Below, piece after piece: positions 3,226-26,524 of a DNA stretch of 32,000 nucleotides. The stretch lies in the NCBI GenBank assembly GCA_000217635.1, contig CP001817.1, positions 360,001-392,000 of the forward strand. The letters run 5' to 3'. A program made the translations under genes and the position numbers. The notes under the pieces are model-generated. The model saw only the letters and a list, made by a program, of their open reading frames with translations. It was not told where the DNA came from and did no database searches. Each line of letters opens with the position of its first letter. The stretch's first letter is position 1. This DNA comes from Candidatus Saccharimonadota bacterium. GTDB lineage: Bacteria > Pseudomonadota > Gammaproteobacteria > Enterobacterales > Enterobacteriaceae.

Positions 3226-3842
3226 ATGAACAGATATTTTAAAAAAAACATAAAAAAAAACTCTATTTCTATACCATTTGTTATTGATCAGACAGAACGT
3301 GGAGATCGTTCATACGATATATTTTCACGATTATTAAAAGAAAGAATAATCTTCGTTACCGGAGTTATCGAAGATAATTTAGCTAATATGATTGTAGCTC
3401 AAATCCTATTTTTAGAATCAGAAAATAACTCTCAAGATATATATTTATATATTAATTCTCCCGGGGGAATCATTACAGCTGGTTTATCTATTTATGATAC
3501 TATGCAATTTGTAAATCCAGATATTAATACAATTTGCTTAGGGCAATCATGTTCTATGGCCGCAATATTATTATGCGCAGGTAAAAAAGGTAAGAGATTT
3601 TGTTTGCCTAATTCTAGGGTTATGCTACACCAACCTTTAGGTAGTTTTCAAGGGCAAGCTTCAGATATTTTTATACATGCAAAAGAAATAAAAAAACTAA
3701 GGATTCGGTTAATACTATATTGTCATATCATACTCAACAACCAATAAATAAAATCATAGAAGACACTGAAAGAGATTATTTTCTATCTCCACAAGAAGCA
3801 CTTCAATATGGAATAATTGACGATATACTTTATAAAAAATAA
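3226..3842 (+). CDS. clpP: ATP-dependent Clp protease proteolytic subunit, frame broken at an A7 tract (3690-3696)
   Basis: The ORF 3226-3747 matches ClpP up to IHAKEIKK and then diverges. The frame from 3696 to the stop at 3840-3842 reads [48 protein letters not shown], which matches the ClpP C-terminus. One added A joins the two frames into about 205 aa. Confidence 0.9.
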
Positions 3843-3912
3843 TCTATTTAACAAAACAATACATATACTGTATAACATATTTATATAAATAAAATAAACA
3901 TAAGAATATAAT

Positions 3913-5151
3913 ATGAATAATATAGATAATAATAAAAAATTATTTTGTATTTTTTGTAATAAAACTCCAGAGAAAACAAAAAAATTAATTATAGGACTAT
4001 CTGGTAATATTTGTACCCAATGTGTTATTTTTTGCTATGATACATTAAAAAAAATAATTATATATATAAAAAAAAGAGAAAAAAATGATTTAACTTCTCC
4101 ATATATAATAAAAAAACATCTAGATAAATATATTATTGGTCAAGAAAAAGCTAAAAAAATTTTTTCGGTATCTGTTTATAATCATTATAAAAAATTAAAA
4201 TATATCCAAGAAAATAAAAATAATATTGAATTAGAAAAAAGTAATATTTTATTATTAGGCCCCACAGGAAGCGGAAAAACCTTATTAGCAAAAACATTAG
4301 CAAAATATTTAAATGTTCCTTTTGCTATAGCAGATGCAACAACGCTTACTCAAGCCGGTTATGTTGGAGAAGATGTAGAAACTATTTTACAAAAACTAAT
4401 AGAAAATAGTAATTATGACATTAAAAAAGCAGAAAAAGGTATTATATATATTGATGAAATAGACAAAATTTCTAAAAAATCAGAAAATTTATCCATAACA
4501 AGAGATGTGTCAGGAGAAGGAGTACAGCAATCACTATTAAAAATAATAGAAGGCACTATAGCTACAGTACCCCCTAAAGGAAGTAGAAAGCATCCGCAAG
4601 AAGATCTATGGAAAATTAATACATCAAATATTTTATTTATTTGTGGAGGAGCTTTTTGTAATATAGATAAAATTATATTAAAACGTGTACAAAAAACACT
4701 AGGTATTGGATTTCACAAAAAAATAAAAGACATTAATAAAATTGAAAAAAAAATATCAAAAAAAGAAAAGATACAACCTCAAGATTTAATAAAATTTGGA
4801 TTAATACCTGAATTTGTCGGAAGATTTCCAATTATTGCAAATTTTGATAGCTTAACTCAACAAAATTTAATAGATATTTTATGTCAACCAAAAAATTCTT
4901 TAATAAAACAATATCAAATTTTATTTTCACTAGATAATATTCAATTAGAATTTGATAAAGAATCTTTAATAGAAATAGCTAAACAGGCTGTGTTAAAAAA
5001 TACAGGTGCAAGAGGTTTACGTGCAACTTTAGAATCAATATTATTGAATACTATGTATGATATATCAATATTAAAAAATATAAAAAAAGTATGTATTAAT
5101 GCTTCTGTAATAAAAAATAAAACAGCACCAAAATTAATTTTTTCAAAATAA
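3913..5151 (+). CDS. clpX: ATP-dependent Clp protease ATP-binding subunit ClpX
   Basis: 412 aa. It has an N-terminal CxxC...CxxC zinc finger, Walker A GPTGSGKT, IYIDEIDKI, RDVSGEGVQQSLLK and TGARGLR. It is colinear with E. coli ClpX. Confidence 0.97.
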   Translation: MNNIDNNKKLFCIFCNKTPEKTKKLIIGLSGNICTQCVIFCYDTLKKIIIYIKKREKNDLTSPYIIKKHLDKYIIGQEKAKKIFSVSVYNHYKKLKYIQENKNNIELEKSNILLLGPTGSGKTLLAKTLAKYLNVPFAIADATTLTQAGYVGEDVETILQKLIENSNYDIKKAEKGIIYIDEIDKISKKSENLSITRDVSGEGVQQSLLKIIEGTIATVPPKGSRKHPQEDLWKINTSNILFICGGAFCNIDKIILKRVQKTLGIGFHKKIKDINKIEKKISKKEKIQPQDLIKFGLIPEFVGRFPIIANFDSLTQQNLIDILCQPKNSLIKQYQILFSLDNIQLEFDKESLIEIAKQAVLKNTGARGLRATLESILLNTMYDISILKNIKKVCINASVIKNKTAPKLIFSK

Positions 5152-5295
5152 ATTTTTAATATAAATTTTAATTTATAAAATTTTCTACAATACATACATA
5201 AATTTAACATTTTCTTAAAATTTTATTTACAGTTTTATTTTATATCTTTTTAATAATTCTATATATTCTAAAATATTTTAACAAAAGAGAAAATT

Positions 5296-7656
5296 ATGAA
5301 TTTTAGGTGTTTTGAAACAATAGAAATTCCAGTATTACCATTACGAGATATGGTAATTTATCCTCATATGATTGCACCATTATTTATAGGACGAGAAATA
5401 TCTATTAAATGCATAGAATTTTCTATGAAAAATAATAAAAAGATTTTATTAATTTCTCAAAAAAAATCAACCATAGAAAATCCACAAGAAAATGATTTAT
5501 TTACAGTGGGAACAGTCTCTGTAATATTACAAATGCTAAAATTACCCGATGGAACAATTAAAATTTTAGTCAAAGGACTTAAAAGAGCTAAAATAACAGA
5601 AATTAAAAAGAATAACGTTTATTTTTTAGCAATAATAAACTATTTAAAATCTCCAAAAATTAATATAATAGAAAAAAAAGTACTTATTAAAACTACTTTA
5701 AAACAATTCGAAAAATATATTAAATTAAATAAAAAAATATCTATAGAAATTTTAAATTCTTTAAAAAATATTAATAACTTAGAAAAAATTGGTGATATTA
5801 TTTCTGCTCATATCCCATTAAAATTGAAAGATAAACAATCAATTTTAGAAATGTCAAAAATTAATAAACGTTTAGAATTTTTAATGAGTATAATGGAGAC
5901 AGAAATAAATTTATTGAAAATTGAAAAACGTATTCGAAACCGTATTAAAAGACAAATGGAAAAAAGTCAACGTGAATACTATCTCAATGAACAAATAAAA
6001 GCAATACAAAAAGAGTTAGGAGATCTTGATGAAACCTTAGATGAATATAAATCTTTACAAAAAAAAATAAATTTAGCAAAAATGCCAAAAACAGCCTGTA
6101 AAAAAAACAAAGACAGAATTAAAAAACTAAAAATGATGTCGCCAATTTCCGCAGAAGCTACTGTTGTACGAAGTTATATAGATTGGATGATTCAAGTTCC
6201 TTGGTATAAACGTAGTAAAATTAAAACAGATATCAAGTCTGCAAAAGAAATTTTAGATTTTGATCATTTTGGGCTAGAAAAAGTAAAAGAACGCATATTA
6301 GAGTATTTAGCAGTACAAAACCGAAAAAATAAAATCAAAGGTCCAATTTTATGTCTTGTAGGTCCTCCTGGAGTTGGAAAAACTTCTTTAGGTAAATCAA
6401 TTGCTCGAGCTACCGGACGAAAATATATACGTATGGCATTAGGTGGAATACGAGATGAAGCTGAAATTAGAGGACATCGAAGAACATATATTGGATCTAT
6501 GCCTGGAAAATTAATACAAAACATATCTAAATCTGGAGTAAAAAAATCCTCTTTTTTATTAGATGAAATAGATAAAATATCATGTGATTTGCGTGTAGAT
6601 CCTGCATCCGCTCTTTTAGAAGTTTTAGATTCAGAACAAAATATGTCATTTAATGATCATTATTTAGAAACTGATTATGATTTATCTGAAGTAATGTTTA
6701 TTGCTACATCTAATTCTATGAATATTCCGGCTCCATTATTAGATCGCATGGAAATAATACAATTATCTGGATATACAGAAGATGAAAAATTAAATATTGC
6801 AAAAAATTATTTAAGACCAAAACAAATTATAGAAAATGCATTAAAAAAAAGGAAAATAAGTATTCTAGATGATGCATTATTAAAAATTATTAGGTATTAT
6901 ACAAGAGAAGCGGGTGTTAGAAATCTCGAACGCGCCATTGCAAAGATATGTAGAAAATCAGTAAAAAAAATAACATTAGATAATAATCAAAAAATGATTA
7001 TTATAAATAAAAAAAATCTAAAAGAATATTTAGGCATTAAAAAATATACTTATGGACAAAGAAATAAAATTAATAAAATTGGTCAAGTGATTGGTTTAGC
7101 TTGGACTGAAGTTGGTGGTGATTTACTAACTATAGAAAGCGCATGTATCCCTGGGAAAGGAAAGTTAACTTATACCGGATCGCTGGGAGAAGTGATGCAA
7201 GAATCAATACAAGCAGCACTAACTGTAGTACGTTCACAGGCTCATAAATTAAATATAAAAAAAAATTTTTATGAAAAAAATGATATTCATGTACATGTAC
7301 CTGAAGGAGCTACTCCTAAAGACGGACCTAGCGCTGGAATTACCATGTGCACAGCTATTGTATCTTGTTTAACAAATATTCCAGTAAAATCCGAAATTGC
7401 TATGACAGGCGAGATTACTTTAAGAGGAATTATATTAAGTATTGGAGGACTAAAAGAAAAATTGATTGCAGCACATCGGGGAGGTATAAAAATCGTATTA
7501 ATTCCTCAGGAAAACATTCGTGATTTAGAAGAAATACCTAAAAATATCATCTCAAATTTATCTATTTGTCCGGTAAATAATATTAAAGAAGTATTAAAAT
7601 TAGCTCTAGAAAGAGATCCGTATATTAAGACTAATTTGTATAAAAATATAAAATAA
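5296..7656 (+). CDS. lon: Lon protease
   Basis: 786 aa. It has IEIPVLPLRD, GPPGVGKTS, the catalytic Ser context PKDGPSAGI and EKLIAAHRGGIK. It is colinear with E. coli Lon along the whole length. Confidence 0.97.
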   Translation: MNFRCFETIEIPVLPLRDMVIYPHMIAPLFIGREISIKCIEFSMKNNKKILLISQKKSTIENPQENDLFTVGTVSVILQMLKLPDGTIKILVKGLKRAKITEIKKNNVYFLAIINYLKSPKINIIEKKVLIKTTLKQFEKYIKLNKKISIEILNSLKNINNLEKIGDIISAHIPLKLKDKQSILEMSKINKRLEFLMSIMETEINLLKIEKRIRNRIKRQMEKSQREYYLNEQIKAIQKELGDLDETLDEYKSLQKKINLAKMPKTACKKNKDRIKKLKMMSPISAEATVVRSYIDWMIQVPWYKRSKIKTDIKSAKEILDFDHFGLEKVKERILEYLAVQNRKNKIKGPILCLVGPPGVGKTSLGKSIARATGRKYIRMALGGIRDEAEIRGHRRTYIGSMPGKLIQNISKSGVKKSSFLLDEIDKISCDLRVDPASALLEVLDSEQNMSFNDHYLETDYDLSEVMFIATSNSMNIPAPLLDRMEIIQLSGYTEDEKLNIAKNYLRPKQIIENALKKRKISILDDALLKIIRYYTREAGVRNLERAIAKICRKSVKKITLDNNQKMIIINKKNLKEYLGIKKYTYGQRNKINKIGQVIGLAWTEVGGDLLTIESACIPGKGKLTYTGSLGEVMQESIQAALTVVRSQAHKLNIKKNFYEKNDIHVHVPEGATPKDGPSAGITMCTAIVSCLTNIPVKSEIAMTGEITLRGIILSIGGLKEKLIAAHRGGIKIVLIPQENIRDLEEIPKNIISNLSICPVNNIKEVLKLALERDPYIKTNLYKNIK

Positions 7657-7695
7657 TACAAAAAAATATTTAAAAATTTTATACTTTATATTTAT

Positions 7696-7730
7696 AGCTG
7701 GCAAAATAATTAGTCATTGCCAGCTTCTTT
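7696..7730 (+). terminator. putative hairpin terminator downstream of lon
   Basis: A GC-containing inverted repeat, agctggcaa (7696-7704) and ttgccagct (7717-7725), sits in AT-rich sequence 40 nt after the lon stop. The loop is about 12 nt and the T-tail is only weak (tcttt). Confidence 0.4.
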
Positions 7731-7805
7731 AACATTGATATCTTAATATAAAAAGTTAATTTTATTATATTAAAAATATCAATATATTATTTGGAACATA
7801 TTATT

Positions 7806-9682
7806 ATGTCAAAAATTAATTTTTTTTCAAAAAAAATATTAGCAATTATTATTATCGTAACAATTATGCTATCTATAATCTTTAATAGTATAGTGATTTA
7901 CTTTATAAAAGATTATAAAAATCACGCTATTTTAATTAATAACGAAAAAATTTCACCTAAAATAATACAGTGTCTGTATTCTTTTAAAAAAAAATATCAT
8001 CAGAATCAAGAAAAAAATAAAACAAATGATTTAGAAACTAATTTTTATAAAAATTATTATATAAAAAAATATTAATGAAAATAATTTATACTTCTTTATT
8101 AAAACAATATACACAAAAAATTCATTTTCACATTAATACTGAAAATATTAAAAATATTATTAAATCATCAAAATTCTTTAAAATAAATAATAAATTCAAT
8201 TTAAATAAATATTTAAATTTTTTAAATTCTATTGAATTAACTAATGCTCAATATTTATCTGCTCTTAAAAATAAAAATTCCGTAAAATCTTTAATATTAT
8301 TATTATTAAAATCAGAAATATTTCTTGAAAAATATGTTCATAAAATTATGAATCAGCATCTTGAGAAAAGAAATGTACAAATAGGATCATTTAATAGTTC
8401 TTTAACAGATTTAGAAAAAAAAATTCCATTTAAAGATATAAAAAACTATTATGTTTTAAATAAAAAAATTTTTTTTATCCAAAAAGAATAAAGTTAGTAA
8501 TATTATGTTTTAAAAAAGCCCTTCCAACAATAAAAAATAATAATAAAATAAATAAATTTAATACAAAAAACATAAAGAAAACTACTCAAAAATACCAAAA
8601 AAAATATCAAATAATTAAAATAAAAAAAATAAAATATGCACAATTATTATTTCATAATATCCAACATAAAAAAAAATTTCATCAAAATATTACAAAACGT
8701 TTACTAGAAATAAAAAAAGAGTATGAAATCCTAAATACAAAATGGATTAATGAAAAAAATTCTTCTGAATTTATAAGAAAATTAAAACTAGATAAAATAG
8801 GAGACATTTCTAAATTAATTAAATATAAAAATAATTTTTATATTGTGATATTAAAAAATAAAAAAATTGAATATACTCACTATCCTGATATTATAAAAAA
8901 AATACAAAAAATCGTATTAATACTATTAATAAAATATCCAAAAATATAAAATTTATAAAAAATATTTCAAATTTATTAATAGAAAATCAATTAAATTTAC
9001 CAAAAAATAATAAGAATATTTATTTAAAAAAATAGAAACAAAATGGATTACACAAGATAAGAAATCCCAATATCGTTATACACATTCATTAATGCATTTC
9101 ATACAAAAAAATTTTTTTTAATCAAACTAATAATTTAACAAATAAAAACCCAATAAAAATTTTTTTATCAAACAAAAATAATGTATATATTTTACAAAAA
9201 AAACTATATCAACCAAAAAAAATTAAAAAATTGGAATGCGTTTATAATACTATTAAAAAAATTTTACAAATTAAAAAATTATATCTAAAAAATTCCTATT
9301 TAATAAAGAAATTTTTATCTAATAAAAATAATATAAATAACAATTTTTTAAAAAATAATAAATTAATATTACAACCAACAAAAACAATAACATTAAAAAA
9401 CAATAAAAAAGATAAACAACTTAAAATAATTTTTAAATTACCTATACCAAAAAAAATAATTTCGTATATACAATACTTCATCAAAAAAATAATCAAGACC
9501 GATTATTAATTTTAAAAAATGTATTTTACCAATCTATTAGTGAGAGTCAGAAAAGAGAATTAATAAAAAAAATAAAAAATCAATATAAAAATTCAATTTT
9601 TTCTACTATATTAAAAAATATATTTCAAAAATCTACAATTCAATATAATGAAAAAATATTAAAAACGATTCAAGTATCTTAA
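7806..9682 (+). pseudogene. ppiD: periplasmic chaperone / PPIase PpiD, fragmented by multiple frameshifts
   Basis: PpiD-like segments occur in order but in different frames. The N-terminal TM segment is 7806-8075 (a TTG at 7791 is also possible). 8075-8491 matches LIDEALLDQY...GKFDNSRY. About 8478-8948 is parvulin-like (YAQLLFHNIQ...NFYIVILKN). 9231-9509 follows, and the last piece ends NSIFSTILKNIFQKSTIQYNEKILKTIQVS at the stop 9680-9682. I traced at least 5 to 6 frame changes. Two of them are at A7 tracts (8063-8069 and 9483-9489). Confidence 0.85.
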
Positions 9683-9740
9683 CATATATTAATATTTAAT
9701 TATTATTAAAATATTTATATATTTAAAGTAATATTTTTAT

Positions 9741-9850
9741 AAAAAAAAATCCTGTTAGCTACTATAACACCTATATCATTTAATTTGGCTGCTTCTTTCC
9801 AGATCTGACCAGATAATTAAACTAATAGCGTTAAGTATTTCTAACAGGAT
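9741..9850 (-). ncRNA. ffs: 4.5S RNA (SRP RNA)
   Basis: The minus strand reads AUCCUGUUAG...AACGCUA...CUGGUCAGAUCUGGAAAGAAGCAGCCAA...GUAGCUAACAGGAU followed by a U-run. The conserved domain IV of E. coli 4.5S is GGUCAGGUCCGGAAGGAAGCAGCCAA. The terminal 10-bp stem pairs 9749-9758 with 9841-9850. The exact ends are approximate. Confidence 0.88.
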
Positions 9851-9985
9851 ATAAAATTTAATATTGCTTTAATTTTAAAAAATTTATTTTTATAATTAAA
9901 CAATAAATATATTGTAGAGTCAAGAAAAATATATTTTTTTTAAAATTAATTTATTTTTTAAAAAATTTCAAAAGATAGGATAAAC

Positions 9986-11077
9986 ATGAAAAAATATCAA
10001 ATACTATCAAATATTTGGAGGCCTCAAACTTTTAATAATGTTCTCGGTCAAAAATATATTATCAATGCAATTAAAAATGGATTAGATACCGGGCGAATTC
10101 ATCAAACATGGTTATTTTCAGGAAAACACGGAATAGGAAAAACTACTATTGCTAGAATTTTAGCAAAAAGTTTAAATTGTTTAAAAGGTGTAACTTCTAA
10201 TCCGTGTCGCTCTTGTTCTCATTGTATTGATATTGAAAAAGGAAAATTCTTAGACTTTATAGAGTTAGATGCTGCATCAAGAACAAAAGTAGAAGAAATA
10301 AAAGTTTTATTAGAAACAATTCAATATTCTCCTATTAAAGGTCGTTTTAAAGTATATTTAATAGACGAAGTGCATATGTTATCTCGACATAGTTTTAATG
10401 CTCTATTAAAAACATTAGAAGAACCACCTAAATTTATTAAATTTATTTTAGCTACCACGGAACCTGAAAAAATTCCTTCCACTATTATTTCGCGTTGTTT
10501 ACATTTTCCTTTACAATCTATAAAAAAAAAAGACATAGTATCACACTTAAGTTATATTTTAAAAAGAAAAATAAATACCCCGTTAGAAGTATTAAATAAT
10601 ATTGCAAATAATTCTTATGGTAGTATTCGAGATTCATTAAATATGTTAGAATTAGCTATTTCTTCTACTACAAATAATGAAATTACTATTTCTAAAGCTG
10701 CAAAATTATTTGGTTTTTTTGATAAGAATATAGTATTAACTTTAGTAAAAAATATATTAAATAAAAATATTAAAAATATATTAAAATTAATAGACGATGC
10801 TGAAAAAAATAATATATCATATGATAGTATCATGTTATCATTAATTAAGTGTTTTCATAAAATATGTATTTTACAAATTTTACCTAAAGAAAATTATCTT
10901 AATAATAAAAAAAAATCCACATATAAATATGATTTATATCAAATCTCTCAAAAAATTTCATTTAATAATCTTAATAATTATTATAAAATATTAATTAACG
11001 GAAGAAAAAATTTAAAATATACATCAAATACACGAATCATTTTAGAAATGACTATTTTTGAAATCTGTCATAAATAA
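9986..11077 (+). CDS. dnaX: DNA polymerase III subunit gamma/tau, short form (363 aa)
   Basis: It has Walker A GKHGIGKTT, the zinc module CLKGVTSNPCRSCSHCIDIEKG, LIDEVHML and the SRC motif IISRCLHF. It is colinear with E. coli DnaX domains I-III and ends at a stop without the tau C-terminal domains. Confidence 0.95.
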   Translation: MKKYQILSNIWRPQTFNNVLGQKYIINAIKNGLDTGRIHQTWLFSGKHGIGKTTIARILAKSLNCLKGVTSNPCRSCSHCIDIEKGKFLDFIELDAASRTKVEEIKVLLETIQYSPIKGRFKVYLIDEVHMLSRHSFNALLKTLEEPPKFIKFILATTEPEKIPSTIISRCLHFPLQSIKKKDIVSHLSYILKRKINTPLEVLNNIANNSYGSIRDSLNMLELAISSTTNNEITISKAAKLFGFFDKNIVLTLVKNILNKNIKNILKLIDDAEKNNISYDSIMLSLIKCFHKICILQILPKENYLNNKKKSTYKYDLYQISQKISFNNLNNYYKILINGRKNLKYTSNTRIILEMTIFEICHK

Positions 11078-11264
11078 TAAAACTTTCAACTTAAATTTAA
11101 TAATCATTAATTAATATTAAGTTATATTAAAGAAAAACAATAAATATTCAGTTCTGTATTTAATATTAACTCTTTAAAATCAAAGTTTTACATATAGTAT
11201 TATTAAATATTTTAATAATGCTATAATAAATATATTTGAATTATTAAATAACGAGATTGTATAA

Positions 11265-11559
11265 ATGTTTACTGAAAAAAATATTACTGAATTTATGAAT
11301 CAAGCTAAAAATATGCAAGAAAAAAATAAAGAAGATGCAAAAAAATATACAAAATACAGAGGTAATAGGACAATCCGGAGCAGGAATGATTCATATTACT
11401 GTTACTGGAACATATGAATGTAAAAAAGTAGATATTAGTAAAGAATTAATAAATCAAAATAGCAAAAATATTCTTGAAGATTTAATTTCGGCAGCTTTTA
11501 ATGATGCAATAAAAAAAATTTTAGATATACAAAAAGATAAATTAACTTTACAATCATAA
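11265..11559 (+). CDS. ybaB: nucleoid-associated protein YbaB/EbfC, frame broken at an A7 tract (11339-11345)
   Basis: The ATG at 11265 opens MFTEKNITEFMNQAKNMQEKNKEDAKK, compared with E. coli [20 protein letters not shown]. The remainder (IQNTEVIGQSGAGMIHITVTG...AAFNDAIKKI) lies in the next frame, which is the track ORF 11335-11559. Removing one A gives an alignment of exact length. Confidence 0.85.
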
Positions 11560-11723
11560 ACAAAAATTATATTTTTATAATATAAAAAACTGATATTTAT
11601 ATCTTATAAAATAAAAAAAAGAAATTAAAAAAATAAAATATTTTATATAATATATATTAAATATATTAAATATATTTTTATATACAATCACAAGACTTTT
11701 AAAAAAATATAGAAGAAATATAT

Positions 11724-13601
11724 ATGAACAATGAAAATAAAACGAAACATTCTTTTCAGTCAGAAGTTAAACAATTACTCCATTTAATGATTCATTCTCT
11801 ATATTCAAATAAAGAAATCTTCTTACGAGAATTAATTTCTAATGCATCTGATGCTATCGAAAAATTAAGATTTTCCGTTATTTCTAATCCTAAAAAATTT
11901 ATAAATCATAATAATACTGCAAAGATACAAATTTCTATTGATAAAACAAAAAAAACATTATCAATTTATGACAATGGTATCGGTATGACTTATGATGAAG
12001 TAAAAAATAATTTAGGAACAATTGCAAAATCAGGTACAAAATCATTTTTAAAAAATATTAGTAATGATAAAAAAGAAAAGAATGATTTTATTGGACAATT
12101 TGGAGTAGGATTTTATTCTTCTTTTATAATTGCAAAAAAAGTATGTGTATTTACTAAACATGCTCAAAACCTATCTGATACAGGAACATTATGGGAATCT
12201 GAAGGTCAAGGTGAATATACAATCGAAAAAATTAAACAAAAAGAATATGGAACAAAAATTATTTTATATATTAAAGAAACAGAAGAAGAATTTTTAGAAA
12301 CTTGGAATATAAAAAACATTGTAAAAAAATATTCTGATCATATTTCTATACCTGTAGAAATAGAAAACTATGATGAAAAAACAAAGTTATTTCTTGGGAG
12401 AAAATTAATCAAGCACAAAGCATATGGACTAAAAATAAAAAAAGAAATTTCTGCAAAATCATATCAAGAATTTTATAAATATATAACACATGATTCTGAG
12501 GAACCATTATTATGGAGTCATAATAAAGTTGAAGGAAACCAAGAATATACAAGTTTATTATACATTCCTCAAAAAGCTACTTGGGATATGTGGCACAGAG
12601 AAAATAAACATGGTTTAAAATTATATGTTAAACACGTATATATTATGGATGATGCAATTCAATTTTTACCAAATTATTTAAGGTTTGTAAAAGGAATTAT
12701 CGATTCTCAAGATTTACCTTTAAATATTTCTAGAGAAATTTTACAAGATAATAAAATTACGCAAAATTTACGAAAATCTTTAACTAAAAGAGTATTAACT
12801 ATATTAAATAATTTATCTGAAACAGATGACATTAAGTATCAAAAATTCTGGAATATTTTTGGTTTAGTATTAAAAGAAGGACTAGCAGAAGATTCAATCA
12901 ATCAAAAACAAATATCTAATTTACTTCGATTTACATCTATTAGTATGCAAAAAAAAGAACAAACATTATCGTTAAAACAATATATTAATAATATGCTTCC
13001 TGAACAAGAAAAAATATATTTTATTACAGCAGATAGTTATGAATCAGCAATTAATAGCCCTCATTTAGAAATATTTCGAGAAAAAAATATTGATGTACTT
13101 TTATTGTCAGATCGTGTTGATGAATGGATGATGAATTATTTGCCAGAATATGAAAATAAAAAATTTCAATCGGTAAGTAAATCAGATATTTCATTAGAAA
13201 AATTAATTAAAAATGATAAATTAAATATAGATCAAAAAGATCAAAATATAGATATTTTTATTGAAAAAAATAAAAATATATTAGGAAATCGTGTTAAAGA
13301 TGTTCGTATGACTAACCGACTTATTAATACTCCTGTAATGGTATTAACTGATACAAATGATATGAGCACTCAAATGGCAAAATTATTTAGTGCAGCTGGA
13401 CAACCTATACCAGACGTGAAATATTTATTAGAAATTAATCCAAAACACCCATTAATAAAAAAAATACAAAATATAAAAGATATAGAAAAAATTTCTATAT
13501 GGATTGAAATGTTATTTGAACAGGCAATTTTTGCTGAAAAAGGAACATTAGATAATCCTCATCAATTTATTAATAGAATTAATAAATTGTTTATATCATA
13601 A
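11724..13601 (+). CDS. htpG: molecular chaperone HtpG (Hsp90); open ORF containing an internal out-of-frame segment
   Basis: 625 aa. It has FQSEVKQLLHLMIHSLYSNKEIFLRELISNASDA, GQFGVGFYS, NYLRFVKGIIDSQDLPLNISRE and MSTQMAKLF. It is colinear with E. coli HtpG except for 12381-12443 (see findings). Confidence 0.95.
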   Translation: MNNENKTKHSFQSEVKQLLHLMIHSLYSNKEIFLRELISNASDAIEKLRFSVISNPKKFINHNNTAKIQISIDKTKKTLSIYDNGIGMTYDEVKNNLGTIAKSGTKSFLKNISNDKKEKNDFIGQFGVGFYSSFIIAKKVCVFTKHAQNLSDTGTLWESEGQGEYTIEKIKQKEYGTKIILYIKETEEEFLETWNIKNIVKKYSDHISIPVEIENYDEKTKLFLGRKLIKHKAYGLKIKKEISAKSYQEFYKYITHDSEEPLLWSHNKVEGNQEYTSLLYIPQKATWDMWHRENKHGLKLYVKHVYIMDDAIQFLPNYLRFVKGIIDSQDLPLNISREILQDNKITQNLRKSLTKRVLTILNNLSETDDIKYQKFWNIFGLVLKEGLAEDSINQKQISNLLRFTSISMQKKEQTLSLKQYINNMLPEQEKIYFITADSYESAINSPHLEIFREKNIDVLLLSDRVDEWMMNYLPEYENKKFQSVSKSDISLEKLIKNDKLNIDQKDQNIDIFIEKNKNILGNRVKDVRMTNRLINTPVMVLTDTNDMSTQMAKLFSAAGQPIPDVKYLLEINPKHPLIKKIQNIKDIEKISIWIEMLFEQAIFAEKGTLDNPHQFINRINKLFIS

Positions 13602-13672
13602 ATAAACAATTTTTTATTTATACATTAAAAATAATTATTTTTAATAAATAAGAAGGAGTGTAAAAGTATATT

Positions 13673-14320
13673 ATGATCAAGATTGTTATGCTTGGAGCGC
13701 CCGGAAGTGGTAAAGGTACTCAAATGCAATTACTGTCTAATTATTATCGTATACCGCCTATATCTGTAGGCGATATACTACGTAAAAAAATTAATATTAA
13801 TCAAAAATTTAAAAAAAATATCAAAAATTATATTAATAACGGAAAACTAGTAAATGATGATATTATTATTGAGTTAATAAAAAAAAGAATAGAAAAAAAA
13901 GATTGTAAAAGTGGATTTATTTTAGATGGTTTTCCGCGCACTATAAAACAAGCTGAAATTTTAAAGAATAATTTATTTACAATAAATTATATCTTACATT
14001 TAAAATTATCAGAAAAAAAAATTTTTGAAAGAATTTCTGGAAGACTTGTACATATACCATCTGGACGCTGTTATCATGAAAAATTTAACCCGCCTCAAAA
14101 AAAAAATAGGGACAACATAACTGGAGAAAAACTAAGTATTAGAAAAGATGACAATATTAATATTATTAAAATAAGATTATATGAATATCAAAAGTATATC
14201 AACCCATTACTTATATGGTTCAATAAAAATATGAATCAAAAAAACATAAAGTTTTTTGAAATTCAAACAAATGATTCAATTAAGAATATACATAAAAAAA
14301 TATTATCTTTATTAAAATAA
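13673..14320 (+). CDS. adk: adenylate kinase
   Basis: 215 aa. It has the P-loop LGAPGSGKGT, FILDGFPRT and HIPSGRCYHEKFNPP. It is colinear with E. coli Adk. Confidence 0.97.
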   Translation: MIKIVMLGAPGSGKGTQMQLLSNYYRIPPISVGDILRKKININQKFKKNIKNYINNGKLVNDDIIIELIKKRIEKKDCKSGFILDGFPRTIKQAEILKNNLFTINYILHLKLSEKKIFERISGRLVHIPSGRCYHEKFNPPQKKNRDNITGEKLSIRKDDNINIIKIRLYEYQKYINPLLIWFNKNMNQKNIKFFEIQTNDSIKNIHKKILSLLK

Positions 14321-14335
14321 TATAAAAATATATTT

Positions 14336-14409
14336 TGCGCTCTACGGGATTCGAACCTGTAACCTACAGCTTAGAAGGCTGTTGCTCTATCCAATTGAGC
14401 TAAGAGCGC
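14336..14409 (-). tRNA. argU: tRNA-Arg (anticodon UCU)
   Basis: The minus strand reads GCGCTCTTAGCTCAATTGGATAGAGCAACAGCCTTCTAAGCTGTAGGTTACAGGTTCGAATCCCGTAGAGCGCA. It folds as a cloverleaf with a 7-bp acceptor stem and the anticodon loop CU-UCU-AA. It is very close to E. coli argU. No CCA is encoded. Confidence 0.9.
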
Positions 14410-14591
14410 GAAAAAAATTATATAATCTCTCTAAATATCTAGGTATTATTGAAAAAAATTATTTTGTAATAATAAATATATTATAACGAATAAAAAAATA
14501 TATCAATACCGGAAATACACCATACTTTATAATAAACAATGATTTTTTTTATTATTATAAAAATTTAAAAATTATTTTAGGTTATATTTAT

Positions 14592-15458
14592 ATGATTACA
14601 AAAATAATGAAAGGATTAAAAATATCTAATCAAATAAAAAATAAAATAAGAAAAAAAAATAAAATTAAAAAAAAAAATAATAATAGAGCCCCTGGATTAG
14701 CTGTAATATTAATAGGTAATAACCCTTCTTCTTTAATTTATATTAATACAAAAATTAATGCTTGTTATTCAGTGGGATTTTTTTCAGCATACTGGCACTT
14801 ATCTGAAGATACATGCGAAAAAAAAGTAGTAAAATTAATAAAAAAATTAAATAATAATAAACTTATTGATGGAATTCTTGTTCAATTACCTTTACCTCAC
14901 CAAATGAATACAACCAATGTTTTAAATAGTATTGATCCATATAAAGACGTAGATGGATTTCATCCATACAACTCTGGATTATTATATCAAGGTTACCCTA
15001 TGTTACGTGCATGTACGCCGCGAGGAATTATAACTTTATTAGAGTATTATAATATTGATTTAACTGGATTAAATGCAATAATTATTGGTAGTTCAATAAT
15101 TGTTGGAAAACCATTATATCTTGAGTTATTAAGAACCAATTGTACGATTACTATCGCAAATAAATTTACAAAAAATTTAAAAGATCATGTAAAAATGGCG
15201 GATTTAATTATTATAGCTATTGGACATCCTAATTTTTTATATGGTGACTGGATAAAATATGGCGCAATTGTTATTGATGTAGGAATAAATTATATGCAAA
15301 AAAACAAAAAAATAGTTGGCGACGTACATTATGATTCCGTATCTTTAAAAACATCTTATATCACTCCTGTACCTGGTGGAGTTGGACCTATGACTATCGC
15401 TTCATTATTACAAAACACATTGGAAATTTATGAAAAATCTCAAAAAAATTTTAAGTAA
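14592..15458 (+). CDS. folD: bifunctional methylenetetrahydrofolate dehydrogenase / cyclohydrolase
   Basis: 288 aa. It has RAPGLAVILIG, DGILVQLPLP, KDVDGFHPYN, CTPRGI and YITPVPGGVGPMT. It is colinear with E. coli FolD. Confidence 0.97.
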   Translation: MITKIMKGLKISNQIKNKIRKKNKIKKKNNNRAPGLAVILIGNNPSSLIYINTKINACYSVGFFSAYWHLSEDTCEKKVVKLIKKLNNNKLIDGILVQLPLPHQMNTTNVLNSIDPYKDVDGFHPYNSGLLYQGYPMLRACTPRGIITLLEYYNIDLTGLNAIIIGSSIIVGKPLYLELLRTNCTITIANKFTKNLKDHVKMADLIIIAIGHPNFLYGDWIKYGAIVIDVGINYMQKNKKIVGDVHYDSVSLKTSYITPVPGGVGPMTIASLLQNTLEIYEKSQKNFK

Positions 15459-15465
15459 AAAAAAA

Positions 15466-16893
15466 TTATAAAAATCTATATATTGAATTATTTTTTGTAT
15501 CTTGTATTTTAACTCCTAAATTTAATAATTTATTTCTAATTTTATCAGCTAACTCCCATTTTTTAATATCACGGTAATACATTCGTAATTTTATTAATTT
15601 ATTAATAAAATTCATTTTTTTAGAATAAATAGAGGGATTTTGAAATAAAAATTTTTCTGGATTTGTTTTTAATAAACCTAAAATATTTCCAAAATATATA
15701 AGATCACTCACTAAAGCTCGCGCTAATATTCTGTTATTTTTATAAATCATATTAATATAACGGGATAAATCATAAAGCAAACTACAAACTTTAGGGGTAT
15801 TAAAATCATCATTCATAGCATTATAAAATTTCTTTTTAAAATTATTTCGAATTTTTTTATCTTTAAAATCTAATACATCAGTCAATAAAATTAAATAGTT
15901 ATCAGAGATCACAGTATATATGCGATTTAAAATTTTCTGTGAAATTATTAAATTATTTTCATTATAATACAACGGATGTCTATAATGAGTACTTAAAAAG
16001 TAATATCGAATAACTTCCGGATGATATTTCAATAATAAACTACGTATTGTAATAAAATTATTTAAAGACTTTGATACTTTTTTATTATTTAAAATCACCA
16101 TTCCTGTATGCATCCAGAAATGTATTGGAAAATCACTATTAATACAACAAGATTGAGCTAATTCATTTTCATGATGGGGAAATAACAAATCAATCCCGCC
16201 CCCATGAATATCTACGCCATCTAAACAATAACGTTGGTGAATAGCAGAACATTCGATATGCCAACCAGGGCGACCTAAACCCCATGGAGAATCCCAAAAA
16301 ACAGAATCTTTTTTATCGGTTTGTTTTTTAAGTAAAAAATTTTTCCATAACACAAAGTCCTTAATAAAAACATTATTTTTCTTAAAATCTGTATTTTTTT
16401 TATCATGAATATTTATTAACCGACGAGAAAGTTTTCCATATTTTGAACAATTTTTAATAGAAAATAAAACATCACCATTTTTTTCAATATATGCATATTT
16501 ATTATTTATTAATTTTTTAATAATAGAAATTATATCAGTAATTGATTCAGTCACTTTAGGTTCATAATTTGGTTCTAAAAGTCCCAAAGAAAAAAAATCT
16601 TTTTTCATTTCTGAAATCATACGTAATGAAAAATTTTTTACTGATTCATTATTATTGATAGCTCTATTAATAATTTTATCATCGATATCTGTAATATTAC
16701 GAACATAATTAGTTACATAACCAATATTTTGTAAATATCTTATAAGCATATCAAAAATTAAAAAAGTTCGAGCGTGTCCGATATGACAAAAATCATAAGT
16801 TGTAACCCCACAAACATAAATATTTATAATTTTTTTATATGAAAAAAAAAATTTTTCTTTCATTTTTGTTAACGTATTAAAAATCTTTAACAC
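15466..16893 (-). CDS. cysS: cysteine--tRNA ligase
   Basis: 475 aa with a GTG start. It begins MLKIFNTLT, and has the HIGH motif CHIGHARTF, GWHIECS and the KMSKS-like KVSKS. It is colinear with E. coli CysS and converges on folD with a 7-bp gap. Confidence 0.97.
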   Translation of the reverse strand: MLKIFNTLTKMKEKFFFSYKKIINIYVCGVTTYDFCHIGHARTFLIFDMLIRYLQNIGYVTNYVRNITDIDDKIINRAINNNESVKNFSLRMISEMKKDFFSLGLLEPNYEPKVTESITDIISIIKKLINNKYAYIEKNGDVLFSIKNCSKYGKLSRRLINIHDKKNTDFKKNNVFIKDFVLWKNFLLKKQTDKKDSVFWDSPWGLGRPGWHIECSAIHQRYCLDGVDIHGGGIDLLFPHHENELAQSCCINSDFPIHFWMHTGMVILNNKKVSKSLNNFITIRSLLLKYHPEVIRYYFLSTHYRHPLYYNENNLIISQKILNRIYTVISDNYLILLTDVLDFKDKKIRNNFKKKFYNAMNDDFNTPKVCSLLYDLSRYINMIYKNNRILARALVSDLIYFGNILGLLKTNPEKFLFQNPSIYSKKMNFINKLIKLRMYYRDIKKWELADKIRNKLLNLGVKIQDTKNNSIYRFL

Positions 16894-17287
16894 AATTCAG
16901 ACCTCTAAAATAAAATTTAGAAAATAAATGTTTTATTTTTTAAAACTTAATAATCAAAATAATATATATTTCAATTTTATCATAGAAAAAATATTAAATA
17001 TATCATAAAAAAATCATTTATAATTCATTAATAGGTAAATATTTTTGTTCAATATAAAATAAATAAAAAAAATAATATATAATGCTATAAATAAATGTAT
17101 TATACTATAATATAGTAATATTTACGTAAAATAAATAAATTTATACAAGTAAATTATAAAAAGTATAAGTAAATAATTTTTTTTAATTCGAAAGGAATTA
17201 AAGTATAATAAATGGATAAATATAAATTAAAAATAATTTTAATTTTTTATATATTTATATGTTTTGATTTAAATAAGAAGGGGTTGT

Positions 17288-17551
17288 ATGAATAATTCAA
17301 TGGTAAAAAAACTAAAATTTCCTTGTTCTTTTACTTATAAAGTTATTGGAATATCTCAGCCAGAATTAACAAATAATATTATTAAAATTATTCAACTACA
17401 TATTCCGGGCGATTATATTCCAAAAATAAAATCTAGTAATAAAGGAACATATTTATCAGTATCAGTAACAATATTTGCAAAAAATTTTAAACAAATTGAA
17501 AAGTTATATAACGAATTAAGTAAAATACACCTTGTACGTATGGTATTATAA
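17288..17551 (+). CDS. ybeD: UPF0250 family protein YbeD
   Basis: 87 aa. FPCSFTYKVIG...PGDYIPKIKSSNKGTYLSVSVTI...LYNELSKIHLVRMVL compares with E. coli YbeD FPTPFTYKVMG...[23 protein letters not shown]...LYEELGKIDIVRMVL. An AAGAAGGGG Shine-Dalgarno sequence lies upstream. Confidence 0.9.
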   Translation: MNNSMVKKLKFPCSFTYKVIGISQPELTNNIIKIIQLHIPGDYIPKIKSSNKGTYLSVSVTIFAKNFKQIEKLYNELSKIHLVRMVL

Positions 17552-17556
17552 AAAAA

Positions 17557-17595
17557 TTTTGCGATGCGGTTATTATTTAATTCCGCACCGCAAAA
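17557..17595. terminator. hairpin between convergent ybeD and cspE; better suited as the cspE terminator
   Basis: The arms are ttttgcgatgcgg (17557-17569) and ccgcaccgcaaaa (17583-17595). The single non-Watson-Crick position is A.C on the + transcript and G.U on the - transcript. Only the - strand reading is followed by a U-run. Confidence 0.55.
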
Positions 17596-17629
17596 GCCCT
17601 GCTAAATATATTATATCTTATTAATAATA

Positions 17630-17839
17630 TTATATACTAATCACATTAGCAGCTGATGGCCCTTTTGCGCCTTCGGTAATTTCAAATTCAACACTTTGAC
17701 CTTCTGCCAAAGTTTTAAATCCGTTGCTTTGTATAGCAGAAAAATGAACAAAAACATCTTTGCTTCCATCTTCTGGGGTAATGAAACCAAAACCTTTAGA
17801 TTCATTAAACCACTTAACATTACCTTTAATCTTGGACAT
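17630..17839 (-). CDS. cspE: cold-shock domain protein CspE
   Basis: The 69-aa product [69 protein letters not shown] differs at about 5 positions from E. coli CspE as I recall it. Confidence 0.97.
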
Positions 17840-18028
17840 CTATATATTACCTTCGATTGAAAAATATAAACTATAGCTTATACCTTGCTGTTAATTCAAT
17901 ATTTATAAACTATTTCATCTAAAAAAATATTAGTATAAAAATCATAAAAAAATAATTTAGACATCAATAAGAATATAAAACATTTTTTAAAAAAATTTAA
18001 AATAAAATATTAATTTATTAAAAAACAA

Positions 18029-18148
18029 ATACCTGGCAATGTCCTACTCTCACACAAGGAAGCCCTGCACTACCATCGGCGTTGAAATGTTTCACTTCTG
18101 AGTTCGAAATGGATTCAGGTGGTACCATAACACTATGTTTACCAGGTA
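18029..18148 (-). rRNA. rrf: 5S ribosomal RNA
   Basis: 120 nt on the minus strand, UACCUGGUAAAC...CGAACUCAGAAGUGAAAC...GCCGAUGGUAGUG...GAGAGUAGGACAUUGCCAGGUAU, colinear with E. coli 5S. Confidence 0.95.
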
Positions 18149-18163
18149 TATGTTTTTTAGAAA

Positions 18164-18180
18164 AACACCTCTGGTGTTGT

Positions 18181-18185
<5 letters not shown>
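18164..18185 (-). other. 3' half of the 23S rRNA processing stem (pairs with 21105-21124)
   Basis: aacacctctggtgttgtaagg (18164-18184) is nearly the reverse complement of ccttacaacccacaggtgtt (21105-21124). The two halves bracket the 23S gene, as RNase III processing stems do in enterobacterial rRNA operons. Confidence 0.55.
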
Positions 18186-21106
<2,921 letters not shown>

Positions 21107-21237
21107 TTACAACCCACAGGTGTTTTTCTAAATTAATAATTATTCCAAATTTTTAAAGAACAATATTAAAACTTTTTTATTTATGAAACTTATAATATCA
21201 TATTTTTATTTATTAGTATATAAATATTTTTAATTTT

Positions 21238-21309
21238 TGTCCCTTAGGGGATTTGAACCCCTGTTGCCGCCGTGAAAGGGCGATGTCCTAACCGCTAGAC
21301 GAAAGGGAC
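21238..21309 (-). tRNA. gltX-type tRNA: tRNA-Glu (anticodon UUC)
   Basis: The minus strand reads GTCCCTTTCGTCTAGCGGTTAGGACATCGCCCTTTCACGGCGGCAACAGGGGTTCAAATCCCCTAAGGGACA, near-identical to E. coli tRNA-Glu. It lies about 130 nt upstream of the 23S gene. No CCA is encoded. Confidence 0.93.
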
Positions 21310-21340
21310 ATTTAAAAAAAATATAATTACGTATTAATAT

Positions 21341-21368
21341 ATGTTACAGAATGCATCCAAAGAGTCAA
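21341..21368 (-). promoter_or_regulatory. candidate sigma70 promoter for the tRNA-Glu-23S-5S unit
   Basis: The minus strand reads TTGACT (21368-21363), then a 16-nt spacer, then TAACAT (21346-21341), about 30 nt upstream of tRNA-Glu. A TTGAC -35 hexamer is uncommon in this AT-rich background, but -10-like hexamers are common. Confidence 0.35.
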
Positions 21369-21446
21369 GTCTTTTTTTATGTTTTTTAAAAAATATCATT
21401 TTTTATAAAAATTTTTATGTAACAAACGAATAAATAAATTAATATT

Positions 21447-22230
21447 TTAAATATTAAGTATTATATGAAACCACGAAAAAAAACGTAATCTGTATTACTA
21501 AAATACCTATCCTATCAGAAAAATTTTTTATTCCTTCTCTTTTACATAATAATAAGAATGAAGTCAAGTTACCATTTTTATTATAAGAAATATCATAAAA
21601 AAAGTTTTTTTATATAATATAACAAGTATGAAATATAAGGAATGTCATCATAAAAACTACATGAAATAGAATTTACAATACAATAAAAAAAATTAAATAC
21701 CATATTTTATTTTAAAAATAAAAATTTCTCTAAATATTTTAAATTTTTTAACTAATATTTTAAATTTTTGGACAGCTTTCTTTAATATATAAACACGATA
21801 ATTTTTGATTAATAAATAATATATAACTAATATTGTAATTCCACCTACTCCTAATCATAAAGAGTTTGTATTTTTTTTAAAAAAAAATAAATCTTTTAAA
21901 TCATATAATAAACTTAATCCATCAATATTACTACCTATAATTTTTTGTTAGAATATTTTATTAAAGTATTTACTGTTTTTAAATTCTTTTAAATATCTAT
22001 TTATTATATAAATAATTAAAAAAATTTTCTTTTTTAAAGATATAATAATATTAACTCTAAAATTTCCATTACCACAAAAATTAAAAAATATAACAAAAAA
22101 ATTTATACCTACATATAATACAGAGATTTATTGATATAATATATTTTTTTCTTTGAAAAACATTTATGTATTATATAAGTGATAATAGATATTTAATAGG
22201 ATTTCCAAATAATGTAATATATTTTCCCAT
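21447..22230 (-). pseudogene. aroE: shikimate dehydrogenase remnant, near full length but with frameshifts and an in-frame stop
   Basis: The minus strand starts at the ATG at 22230 with MGKYITLFGNPIKY (E. coli ETYAVFGNPIAH). Later pieces lie in other frames. They are GNGNFRVNIIISLKKK (GGKGANVTVPFKEE), QKIIGSNIDGLSLLYDLKDL ([20 protein letters not shown]), a TGA followed by LGVGGITILVIYYLL (LIGAGGASRGVLLPLL), and DRIGILVIQ (DGLGMLVAQ). Confidence 0.8.
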
Positions 22231-22484
22231 TTTTTTCTAAAAGACTTTTTTGCAACATATCATAATCCTATGGTATAATAAAAAAAATTTAAAATTTTAT
22301 TAATATATTAATTAAAAAAAATAAATTTTTTATACACTTGTAATATCATTACTTTATATACTAAAAATTAAAAAATTATTAAAAAAAAATTTTTTTAATA
22401 ATTTAAAAAATTTGTTTTAAGTTCATTAATTCTTTTTTATAATTCTTTTTTATATTAAATTTACATATAAATTAAATAATATCT

Positions 22485-22931
22485 ATGTCTATAAAAAAAA
22501 TTTTACAATATCCAGATAATCGTTTACGAAAAATTGCGAAACCAGTCAAAAATATTGGACGAATAACTAAAAAAATAATCAGTGACATGTTTGATACAAT
22601 GTTAGCACATAAAGGGATTGGATTGGCCGCAACGCAAATTAATATTCACCAACAAATTATTGTAATAAAAAAAAATATATACAAAAATCCATCATTAATT
22701 TTAATTAATCCTATTCTTTTAAAGTCTTCCGGAAACATTGCTATTAATGAAAGCTGTTTATCTGTACCAAACATTCAAAAAAAATTAATCGAGCATATTA
22801 TATTCACGTTAATGCAATAAACTATAACGGAAAAAAAAATAACAATAAAAGCTAAGTCTTTATTAGCAATATGTATTCAACATGAACTAGATCATTTAAT
22901 AGGAAAACTATTTATTGATCACCTTATATAA
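22485..22931 (+). CDS. def: peptide deformylase, frame broken at A8 (22777-22784) and A9 (22831-22839) tracts
   Basis: Frame 0 reads [21 protein letters not shown]...GIGLAATQ...[12 protein letters not shown]. The middle piece [18 protein letters not shown] lies in another frame. The last piece [30 protein letters not shown] returns to frame 0, with its stop at 22929-22931. The three pieces joined align to E. coli Def with exact spacing. Confidence 0.88.
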
Positions 22932-22962
22932 ATATAACTTTATAAAATTTTAATATATTAAG

Positions 22963-23902
22963 ATGTCTAAAAAAAAAATTACGTATTATTTTTGCTGGAA
23001 CTAATGAGTTTTCACTCCAACATTTAAAATCATTATTTTTATCAAATTATATTATTAGTGCTGTTATTACTAAATATAATAAGAAAACAATTTCTCCTAT
23101 AAAAGATTTTGCATTAAATCACAATATTTTTATATTACAACCTAAAAATTTAAATAAAAAAAGTTTTTATAATACAATTAAAAAATACAGGCAAATATTT
23201 TTAATTGTATGTGCATATGGTATGATTATACCTTCTTCAATACTAAAACTGTTTTCAAAAAAAGCAATAAATATACACGCTTCTCTGTTACCCCGATGGA
23301 GGGGAGCTGCTCCAATCCAATGGGCTATATTATCTGGTGATAATAATACCGGAATTAGTATTATTCAAATGAATGATCAAATAGATGCTGGAAAAATTTT
23401 ATATTCCGTCTCTTGTCCTATTCATAACTCTGATACAACTAAAACAATATATAAAAAATTAATACCTATTTCAATAAACGCTATGCATCATATTTTAATA
23501 AAAATCATTAAAAATAACATTATCAATTCTTATAAACAAGATATAAAAAAAATAACTTACGCGCCCAAAATAAAAAAAGAACAGACACGGATATCATGGA
23601 AAAAATCAGCACAATATAATGAACGATTAATACGCGCATTAAACCCTTATCCTTATTGTTATTTTATTTTAAAAGATAAAATTATTAAAATAATACAAGC
23701 ATCTGTATTATTAAATGATTATAAAAAAAACTATAGAATTGGAGAAATTGTGTGCGCCAATCAGTTAGGTATACAAGTATATTCAAAAAATAAATTATTA
23801 AATATAGAAGTAGTACAAATAGCCGGAGGTATACCTATACATGTTAGTCAATTATTACATTCTAAAAAATCTTGGTTTACTCCTGGAACTATAATATTAT
23901 AA
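22963..23902 (+). CDS. fmt: methionyl-tRNA formyltransferase, frame broken in an A10 tract right after the start codon
   Basis: ATG TCT at 22963 is followed by A10 (22969-22978). The next frame is open from there to 23902 and reads [16 protein letters not shown]...VCAYGMIIP...INIHASLLPRWRGAAPIQ, colinear with E. coli Fmt ([20 protein letters not shown]...). The track ORF 23222-23902 is only the part after an internal Met. Confidence 0.9.
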
Positions 23903-26110: not shown

Positions 26111-26524
26111 TTATACACGACGCTTTTTTGGTGGACGACAACCATTATGAGGAATGGGTGTAATATCTGTAATATTTGTAATACGAAACCCAACAGTATT
26201 TAATGCTCTAATTGTAGACTCTCGTCCCGGACCAGGACCTTTTACCATAATTTCTAAATTTTTTATTCCATATTCTTTTACAATATCAGCGCATCTTTCG
26301 GCTGCAACTTGTGCTGCAAAAGGCGTTGATTTTCGCGATCCTCTAAACCCTGAACCGCCTGAAGTAGCCCAACCTAATGTATGACCTTGACGATCAGTAA
26401 TTGTGACAATTGTATTATTAAATGATGCATGTATATGAGCGATACCATCAATAATTTGCCTTTTAACTCTTTTTTTAAATGTAATGTTTTTGTTTTTACC
26501 ATTATTTAGTAACCCTATCTTCAT
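26111..26524 (-). CDS. rpsK: 30S ribosomal protein S11
   Basis: 137 aa. [51 protein letters not shown]...[15 protein letters not shown] matches S11. Its ATG overlaps the rpsM TGA as ATGA. Confidence 0.96.

Follow-up and report, generated by a model that had tools for sequence, protein, structure and literature searches.

The 32,000-nucleotide stretch of DNA examined here (the window; contig CP001817.1, positions 360,001 to 392,000) carries a series of conserved bacterial genes whose reading frames break at short tracts of A or T, which raises a simple question: do these breaks exist in the organism, or only in its deposited sequence? We consider it very likely that they are single-base errors in the length of A/T homopolymers in the deposited CP001817.1, absent from the living genome. 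The genes concerned (clpP, clpX, lon, ppiD, ybaB, htpG, def, fmt, rpsK, secY, and rplO) are most likely intact in the organism.

The window is a faithful copy of the public 2011 genome record of Buchnera aphidicola (Cinara tujafilina), because its HtpG is 100% identical to that of this symbiont and its open reading frames (ORFs) for ClpP, ClpX, Lon, YbaB, Def, and Fmt correspond exactly to GenBank AEH39878-AEH39890. The accession CP001817.1 is listed for the C. tujafilina Buchnera in Table 1 of PMC11193766. The G+C content is about 22% in the protein-coding stretches and about 25% overall.

Frame breaks in the conserved genes

A preliminary description of the window had listed nine breaks (one each in clpP, ybaB, and fmt, and two each in htpG, def, and ppiD), all placed in A6-A10 tracts. 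All nine are indeed present at these tracts, and the gain or loss of one A repairs each of them, the edited ORFs regaining the lengths found in sister genomes. The list is nonetheless incomplete. E. coli proteins as the sole reference are enough to find these breaks but miss compensated pairs in lon, clpX, secY, and rplO, and for that reason we adopted sister Buchnera references and a frameshift-aware alignment. Our own protein-to-DNA aligner permits, but penalizes, frame changes of +1 or -1, and the genes of each genome were aligned with the proteins of the others. The robust shifts are each supported by two to three sister references; the weaker pairs in lon and fmt were mainly seen at a lower penalty.

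In this way 23 robust shifts were found: six in ppiD (not two), three in secY, two each in clpX, lon, htpG, def, and rplO, and one each in clpP, ybaB, fmt, and rpsK, with three weaker pairs in lon, clpX, and fmt besides (Table 1). The shifts in clpX, lon, rplO, secY, and rpsK had escaped the preliminary description altogether. Its restriction to sense-strand A tracts holds for the nine breaks that it listed, but T runs in lon, ppiD, and secY are affected as well. A gapless match to the E. coli orthologs, which it had also claimed, is only approximate, as HtpG has a two-residue gap beside its first tract that is common to the sister genomes. On the other hand, the A9 (14651-14659) and A11 (14667-14677) tracts of folD, named there as intact controls, are intact.

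All 23 robust events lie at A/T runs. In 22 of them the event falls in or beside a tract of at least six bases, although such positions make up about 10% of the analyzed coding bases (P ~ 1e-22). Run lengths are between five and eight in 21 cases, and only the fmt A10 and def A9 tracts reach nine or more. The share of tracts that are shifted is 0.6%, 3.3%, 14.5%, and 15% at lengths of five, six, seven, and eight, respectively, then 6% (1/17) at nine and 20% (1/5) at ten. Neither base is preferred (18/214 sense-A and 4/38 sense-T tracts). As four events fall in T tracts of the sense strand and six belong to genes on the minus strand, the pattern lacks any specificity for sense-strand A and extends past the coordinates of the preliminary description.

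Five genes hide compensated sets of shifts within apparently intact ORFs: clpX, lon, htpG, rplO, and secY. The htpG ORF stays open over 625 codons, of which the 20 between the two tracts are scrambled. They read TKLFLGRKLIKHKAYGLKIK in the record and NKVISWEKINQAQSIWTKNK after correction, with NKVISWEKINQAQAIWTKNK in a sister genome; the corrected stretch is the conserved HtpG sequence of all Buchnera inspected and is similar in E. coli. In secY, three shifts within about 90 bases (net -3) leave 430 amino acids (aa) against 431 in all relatives and turn FFSFLLSLRPNHFLYFVLYIFLIIFFCFFYT into NFLVFYYLYVLIIFYILFFIFFDYIFLFFYT, scrambling about 27 codons that include the conserved LRPNHFLY...IIFFCFFYT. 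Lon reads GVKKSSFLLDE in the record, whereas E. coli and the Buchnera of Cinara confinis have GVKNPLFLLDE. Ten codons are scrambled in clpX (KKIIIYIKKR in the record vs KKNNYIYKKK corrected), and ribosomal protein L15 (rplO) changes from LKNLILSKK to LKKFNIIKK upon correction.

Six edits in ppiD (window 7806-9700) yield 626 aa and zero stops. In def, an in-frame TAA (22818-22820) stands between the two tracts. The fmt start codon (ATG 22963) lies in frame 1 and the gene body in frame 2, with the A10 tract directly after the start. The first ten codons of rpsK (S11) are in another frame, so the listed ORF begins at an upstream ATG and counts 137 aa, against 130 aa in the sisters. Together with 625 aa for HtpG, the corrected lengths of ClpP, YbaB, Def, and Fmt (Table 1) equal those of the closest sister genome. 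Among the weaker pairs, that of lon would restore KKTKTELKKL from KKNKDRIKKL (sister, KKTILELKKL). The fmt pair turns KKYRQIFLIVCAYG of the record into KKIQANILIVCAYG, the sister sequence being IHADILIICAYG; its support comes from four references, in three cases at the lower penalty alone.

Table 1. Homopolymer tracts with frame shifts, weaker candidate pairs, and the aroE remnant (window coordinates; lengths refer to the deposited coding sequence, CDS, and its corrected form)
Feature	Position	Strand	Deposited length of the tract and remarks
clpP A7	3690..3696	+	one A short; frame 1 to frame 3; deposited CDS 173 aa (AEH39878.1), corrected 205 aa
clpX A8	4047..4054	+	one A short; first of compensated pair
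clpX A7	4079..4085	+	one A extra; second of compensated pair
lon A7	6540..6546	+	one A extra; first of pair
lon T6	6552..6557	+	one T short; second of pair
ppiD A5	8049..8053	+	one short
ppiD A7, abutting T8	8462..8468	+	one short
ppiD A8	8895..8902	+	one short
ppiD A7	9026..9032	+	one short
ppiD T8, abutting A7	9112..9119	+	one extra
ppiD A8	9449..9456	+	one short
ybaB A7	11320..11326	+	one A extra; deposited CDS 74 aa (AEH39882.1), corrected 97 aa
htpG A6	12376..12381	+	one A short; first of pair
htpG A7	12437..12443	+	one A extra; second of pair
def A8	22777..22784	+	one A short
def A9	22831..22839	+	one A extra; deposited CDS 111 aa (AEH39889.1), corrected 148 aa
fmt A10	22969..22978	+	one A extra; deposited CDS 226 aa from internal Met (AEH39890.1), corrected 312 aa
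rpsK sense A7, codon 10	26470..26476	-	one short; true start codon in other frame
secY sense A7 (27579-27585), sense T6 (27512-27517), sense T7 (27490-27496)	27490..27585	-	each one base short
rplO sense A6 (28638-28643), sense A8 (28618-28625)	28618..28643	-	A6 one short, A8 one extra; compensated pair
lon weaker candidate pair	6100..6126	+	A8 (6100-6107) one extra, A6 (6121-6126) one short; one reference, lower penalty
fmt weaker pair	23180..23202	+	A6 (23180-23185) one short, T5 (23198-23202) one extra
aroE remnant	21400..22300	-	2-4 substitution stops, 8-13 shifts, several outside homopolymers

Comparison with the sister genomes

Four sister assemblies were compared with the window: that of the Buchnera of Cinara confinis (L013, LT667503.1), two Logan contigs from run SRR21069242 (L014 and L016), and an ENA k141 metagenome contig (L017). 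A fifth Buchnera (L015, LR217700.1) is more distant than these four. In all five, clpP, ppiD, ybaB, htpG, aroE, def, and fmt are intact where covered. When the same aligner was run reciprocally over the same genes of the four sisters, no internal frame change appeared at the standard penalty; the calls made there were a few artifacts at variable C-terminal ends and, at the lower penalty, one net -3 cluster in the cysS of L013. None of the 23 shifted tracts (0/23) is common to any of the four. Since the window, L013, and L014 lie at about the same distance from one another, a natural process acting throughout the clade should have left similar counts, whereas 23 were observed on one side and 0 on the other.

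The corrected proteins, moreover, have diverged no further than the sisters have from each other. Corrected ClpP shares 0.82-0.86 identity with the sisters (0.84 between sisters), YbaB 0.66-0.76 (0.68), and the ppiD product 0.586/0.551 (0.553), the latter without a stop despite its six shifts. The downstream or corrected frame thus appears to be under purifying selection, which is also what a sequence error predicts. The scrambled segments tell the same story: read in the corrected frame, 73 of 88 residues (0.83) are identical to those of the sisters, as in the rest of the genes, and nucleotide differences per site at corrected-frame codon positions 1/2/3 amount to 0.148/0.045/0.261, against 0.107/0.054/0.276 elsewhere. 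Because both the identity in the ancestral frame and the codon-position periodicity persist in these segments, the comparison indicates that the shifts are without measurable age and that it was the corrected frame that selection read over practically all of the divergence. Reading the record as it stands, on the other hand, destroys invariant motifs of essential proteins, namely IIFFCFFYT in transmembrane segment 7 (TM7) of SecY, NPLFLLDEID in Lon, and SWEKIN in HtpG.

An old pseudogenization of ppiD, clpP, def, fmt, and ybaB was considered and ruled out, as they show neither extra divergence nor stops. By its sequence, ppiD is probably not a pseudogene. What true decay looks like in this genome can be seen in aroE, which the preliminary description had rightly set apart for its substitution stop. 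Its remnant combines substitution stops with shifts outside homopolymers and a lowered identity to the sisters (0.52-0.54, vs 0.71 between sisters), and it looks like an old, true pseudogene. Like the frame-broken genes, it has frameshifts, some of them at homopolymers; those genes, however, have none of its other three features.

Explanations for the tract lengths

The pattern is what miscalled homopolymers would leave behind: the changes are restricted to homopolymers, grow more frequent in longer runs, and strike both strands as well as A and T alike, with the true frame still the selected one and no extra divergence. The true tracts would then be one base longer or shorter than deposited, and the cause would be miscalling of the pyrosequencing type. 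The genome behind CP001817.1, described by Lamelas and colleagues in 2011, was reportedly sequenced by 454. Literature searches, which did not cover that paper itself, found neither a platform statement for CP001817.1 nor an erratum.

Circumstantial support for 454 comes from three publications and from re-annotation counts. A companion genome of the same laboratory, also from 2011, was sequenced by 454 only, with Sanger reads just for contig joins (PMC3213167), and 454 FLX and Titanium were the platforms used on bacteriome DNA of C. tujafilina (PMC4122931). In Buchnera, such reads proved unreliable in poly-A regions, and their indels had to be set right by means of Illumina and Sanger data (Jiang et al. 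2013, PMC3890641). A uniform re-annotation gives CP001817.1 394 CDS and 78,487 noncoding bases, against 384 and 68,133 for an equal-sized sister (PMC11193766); higher counts of both are expected from genes that are split and truncated genome-wide. The 454 miscalls in Buchnera (Jiang et al. 2013, PMC3890641) and the shifts in the window have much in common: one-base changes confined to A/T runs on both strands, a rate that rises with length, absence from the short-read assemblies of relatives, and no evolutionary footprint. They differ in that the errors here are more clustered and more frame-compensating than independent miscalls would be.

This last point weighs against miscalling, as do several others. 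Outside ppiD, 13 of 17 events have a neighbor within 100 nucleotides (2.4 expected, P < 5e-5), and six genes have shift sets whose net change is zero or a multiple of three (1.7 expected, P = 0.0007). The errors are clustered and frame-compensating, so the independence expected of plain random miscalls fails, which lowers our confidence in this explanation in its simple form. Furthermore, neither reads nor an independent assembly of this strain were found in the collections searched, the corrected ClpP, Def, Fmt, and YbaB have no entry in a collection of 15 billion proteins, and the HtpG and SecY protein clusters have one member each. The sisters, finally, belong to other species (about 82% protein identity) rather than to the same strain, which leaves room, formally, for a process specific to this lineage. 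A purely random-miscall model was therefore judged incomplete, given the clustering and compensation of events. We infer that a second process may have made many of the errors frame-compensating. This could have been ORF-guided manual finishing, in which the nearest ambiguous run would be edited to restore ORFs, correlated errors between the signals of neighboring runs in flow-based sequencing, or locally poor coverage.

Tamas and coworkers in 2008 and Wernegreen and coworkers in 2010 reportedly described frameshifts at poly(A) tracts of Buchnera and Blochmannia that transcriptional slippage rescues, the latter study being said to use conservation of the shifted tract in related symbionts as a criterion. 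Applied to the window, slippage of RNA polymerase on the A/T tracts would yield a fraction of in-frame transcripts and keep the genes functional. The settings are alike (an A+T-rich insect endosymbiont, every break at a homopolymer of the sense strand, downstream frames that are stop-free and conserved), and Buchnera annotators accept such genes as functional if the tract is conserved (bioRxiv 10.1101/2022.08.28.505559). Yet conservation across relatives, the criterion of the field, is precisely what the 23 tracts lack in all four sister assemblies. Whereas rescued runs are typically at least nine bases long, most tracts here are A5-A8, lengths at which slippage is rare; as runs lengthen, insertions during transcription become exponentially more frequent (Traverse and Ochman 2017, PMC5574713). 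Nine of the 23 events would require removal of a base from the transcript, although transcription deletions seldom occur in homopolymers, and no frame-restoring transcription error was seen in another Buchnera strain (same study). Where one slip suffices in rescued genes, seven genes of the window would need two to six at once (six in ppiD, three in secY, and two each in def, htpG, lon, clpX, and rplO), some of them in T tracts. The unslipped product of a compensated pair would dominate, yet selection has tracked the ancestral frame, and neither the multishift genes nor scrambled motifs such as SecY TM7 and Lon NPLFLLDEID are within reach of rescue. Slippage could still apply to the four genes with a single break (clpP, ybaB, fmt with its A10, and rpsK); as they share the pattern of the rest, we argue that they share its cause. 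All in all, rescue by slippage strikes us as very unlikely. Of the two explanations put forward in the preliminary description, the evidence thus favors miscalling and leaves slippage unsupported as a general cause. The view expressed there that sequence cannot separate the two is true of the window read alone but no longer once the sister genomes are compared.

The shifts may also be real but very recent, with clpP, ybaB, def, fmt, and ppiD heading to loss and the essential genes restored in frame by selected second-site slips. Clustering and compensation beyond chance would fit selection for frame restoration, aroE shows that real indels accumulate in the lineage, and def and fmt, both broken, share one pathway. 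All 23 events would, however, need an age near zero, with none over the same genes in the four sister assemblies; the def pair restores no ORF, given the TAA between its tracts; ppiD carries six shifts without extra divergence or a stop; and the scrambling of about 27 SecY residues around TM7 or of Lon NPLFLLDEID would hardly be tolerated. Biba, Klink, and Bazykin in 2022 reportedly dealt with frameshift mutations that arise in pairs and compensate each other as proteins evolve. The pairs in the window look similar (a nearby +1 and -1 around a short scrambled segment in an open ORF), but real pairs age and evolve in their new frame, whereas the segments here still follow the old one and hit invariant motifs. 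We regard recent mutation as highly improbable, and we think equally little of a mixed scenario in which a recent burst of slippage mutations produced real tract lengths, with secY, lon, htpG, clpX, and rplO saved by nearby frame-restoring slips and clpP, ybaB, def, fmt, rpsK, and ppiD dependent on transcriptional slippage or being lost. Least probable of all appears to be a consensus that is a mosaic matching no real haplotype, drawn from tract lengths that vary among the genome copies of a cell and among aphids. Replication slippage at homopolymers is frequent in A+T-rich symbionts (PMC5574713), and such heterogeneity would yield differences of zero age. At essential genes, however, functional alleles should predominate, and a correct consensus would then keep the frame; the short-read assemblies of the sisters are free of such ambiguity, and in practice the idea reduces to an error of consensus calling.

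Neighboring genes and consequences for the record

The genes of the window follow the order bolA-clpP-clpX-lon-ppiD-ffs-dnaX-ybaB-htpG-adk-folD-cysS-ybeD-cspE, continuing with 5S-23S-tRNAGlu-aroE-def-fmt-rplQ...rplE. Gene content varies among the Buchnera of Cinara, as can be gathered from the differing presence of folD, mdlA, and mdlB. In the window (13673-16896), L013, and L014, folD lies between adk and cysS, and it was not found between these genes in L015 (11949-14417) or in a further contig, L007 (11956-14403). L015 has mdlA and mdlB between ppiD and dnaX; the window, L013, and L014 lack both there. The 3' end of folD (15441-15465) gave an inconsistent frame change at an A7 or A9 tract, of opposite sign against two references (F+ against one, F- against the other); it was left out of the event count because the length of the C-terminus varies among sisters (288, 293, and 289 aa). 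The dnaX genes of the clade count 363-375 codons (window 9986-11077, L013 8267-9361, L014 8369-9466, L015 8366-9493) and match E. coli tau (643 residues) over residues 1-354, about the length of gamma, the C-terminal part of tau being missing.

In the 23S ribosomal RNA (minus strand, about position 18913), the window has ACCA-CC where L013, L015, and L007 have ACCACCC. The stretch is conserved, and the missing base, which belongs to a C3 run, is possibly another miscall, judging by the alignment. The 5S and 23S region holds only 13 homopolymer tracts of at least five bases, so 0.1 events would be expected there.

Neither Lon nor HtpG of the window had an exact match in a contig index, and a scan of genome contigs yielded nothing but distant symbionts besides one Buchnera-like contig, L007 (JBPBPJ010000037.1, 100 kb, 25.5% G+C). 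The latter is labeled as a metagenome-assembled genome of Janthinobacterium lividum. Its HtpG is 68% identical to that of the window and its gene order is Buchnera-like (lon...dnaX-ybaB-htpG-adk-cysS...aroE-def-fmt-rplQ), so it looks like a misbinned contig of an aphid symbiont.

For the record itself, the coding sequence of the window appears to hold a homopolymer error roughly every kilobase. The truncated ORFs, including those of window positions 22485-23902 (positions 26111-26524 are cited alongside), are listed as ordinary proteins in the deposit and have been copied into UniRef; the deposited ClpP, YbaB, Def, and Fmt are of this kind (accessions in Table 1). The RefSeq re-annotation gives yet other lengths (304 aa for Fmt and 77 aa for YbaB). 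The database entries of SecY, Lon, HtpG, ClpX, L15, and S11 are full-length but contain scrambled stretches. No CDS is annotated for ppiD, the protein accessions running consecutively across the other genes.

Inferences of gene loss are therefore at risk: ppiD would seem to be a pseudogene, and formylation and deformylation would seem to be lost. Rate estimates and catalogs of "slippage-rescued" genes could likewise be misled. If the decay of aroE is real, the shikimate pathway is broken at one step in this symbiont, though the sister genomes keep aroE. As for the frame breaks, rescue by slippage at poly(A) tracts is an established phenomenon, of which they are probably no example. Their biological significance is most likely nil, and the main value of the finding lies in its warning about a flawed but widely used reference genome.

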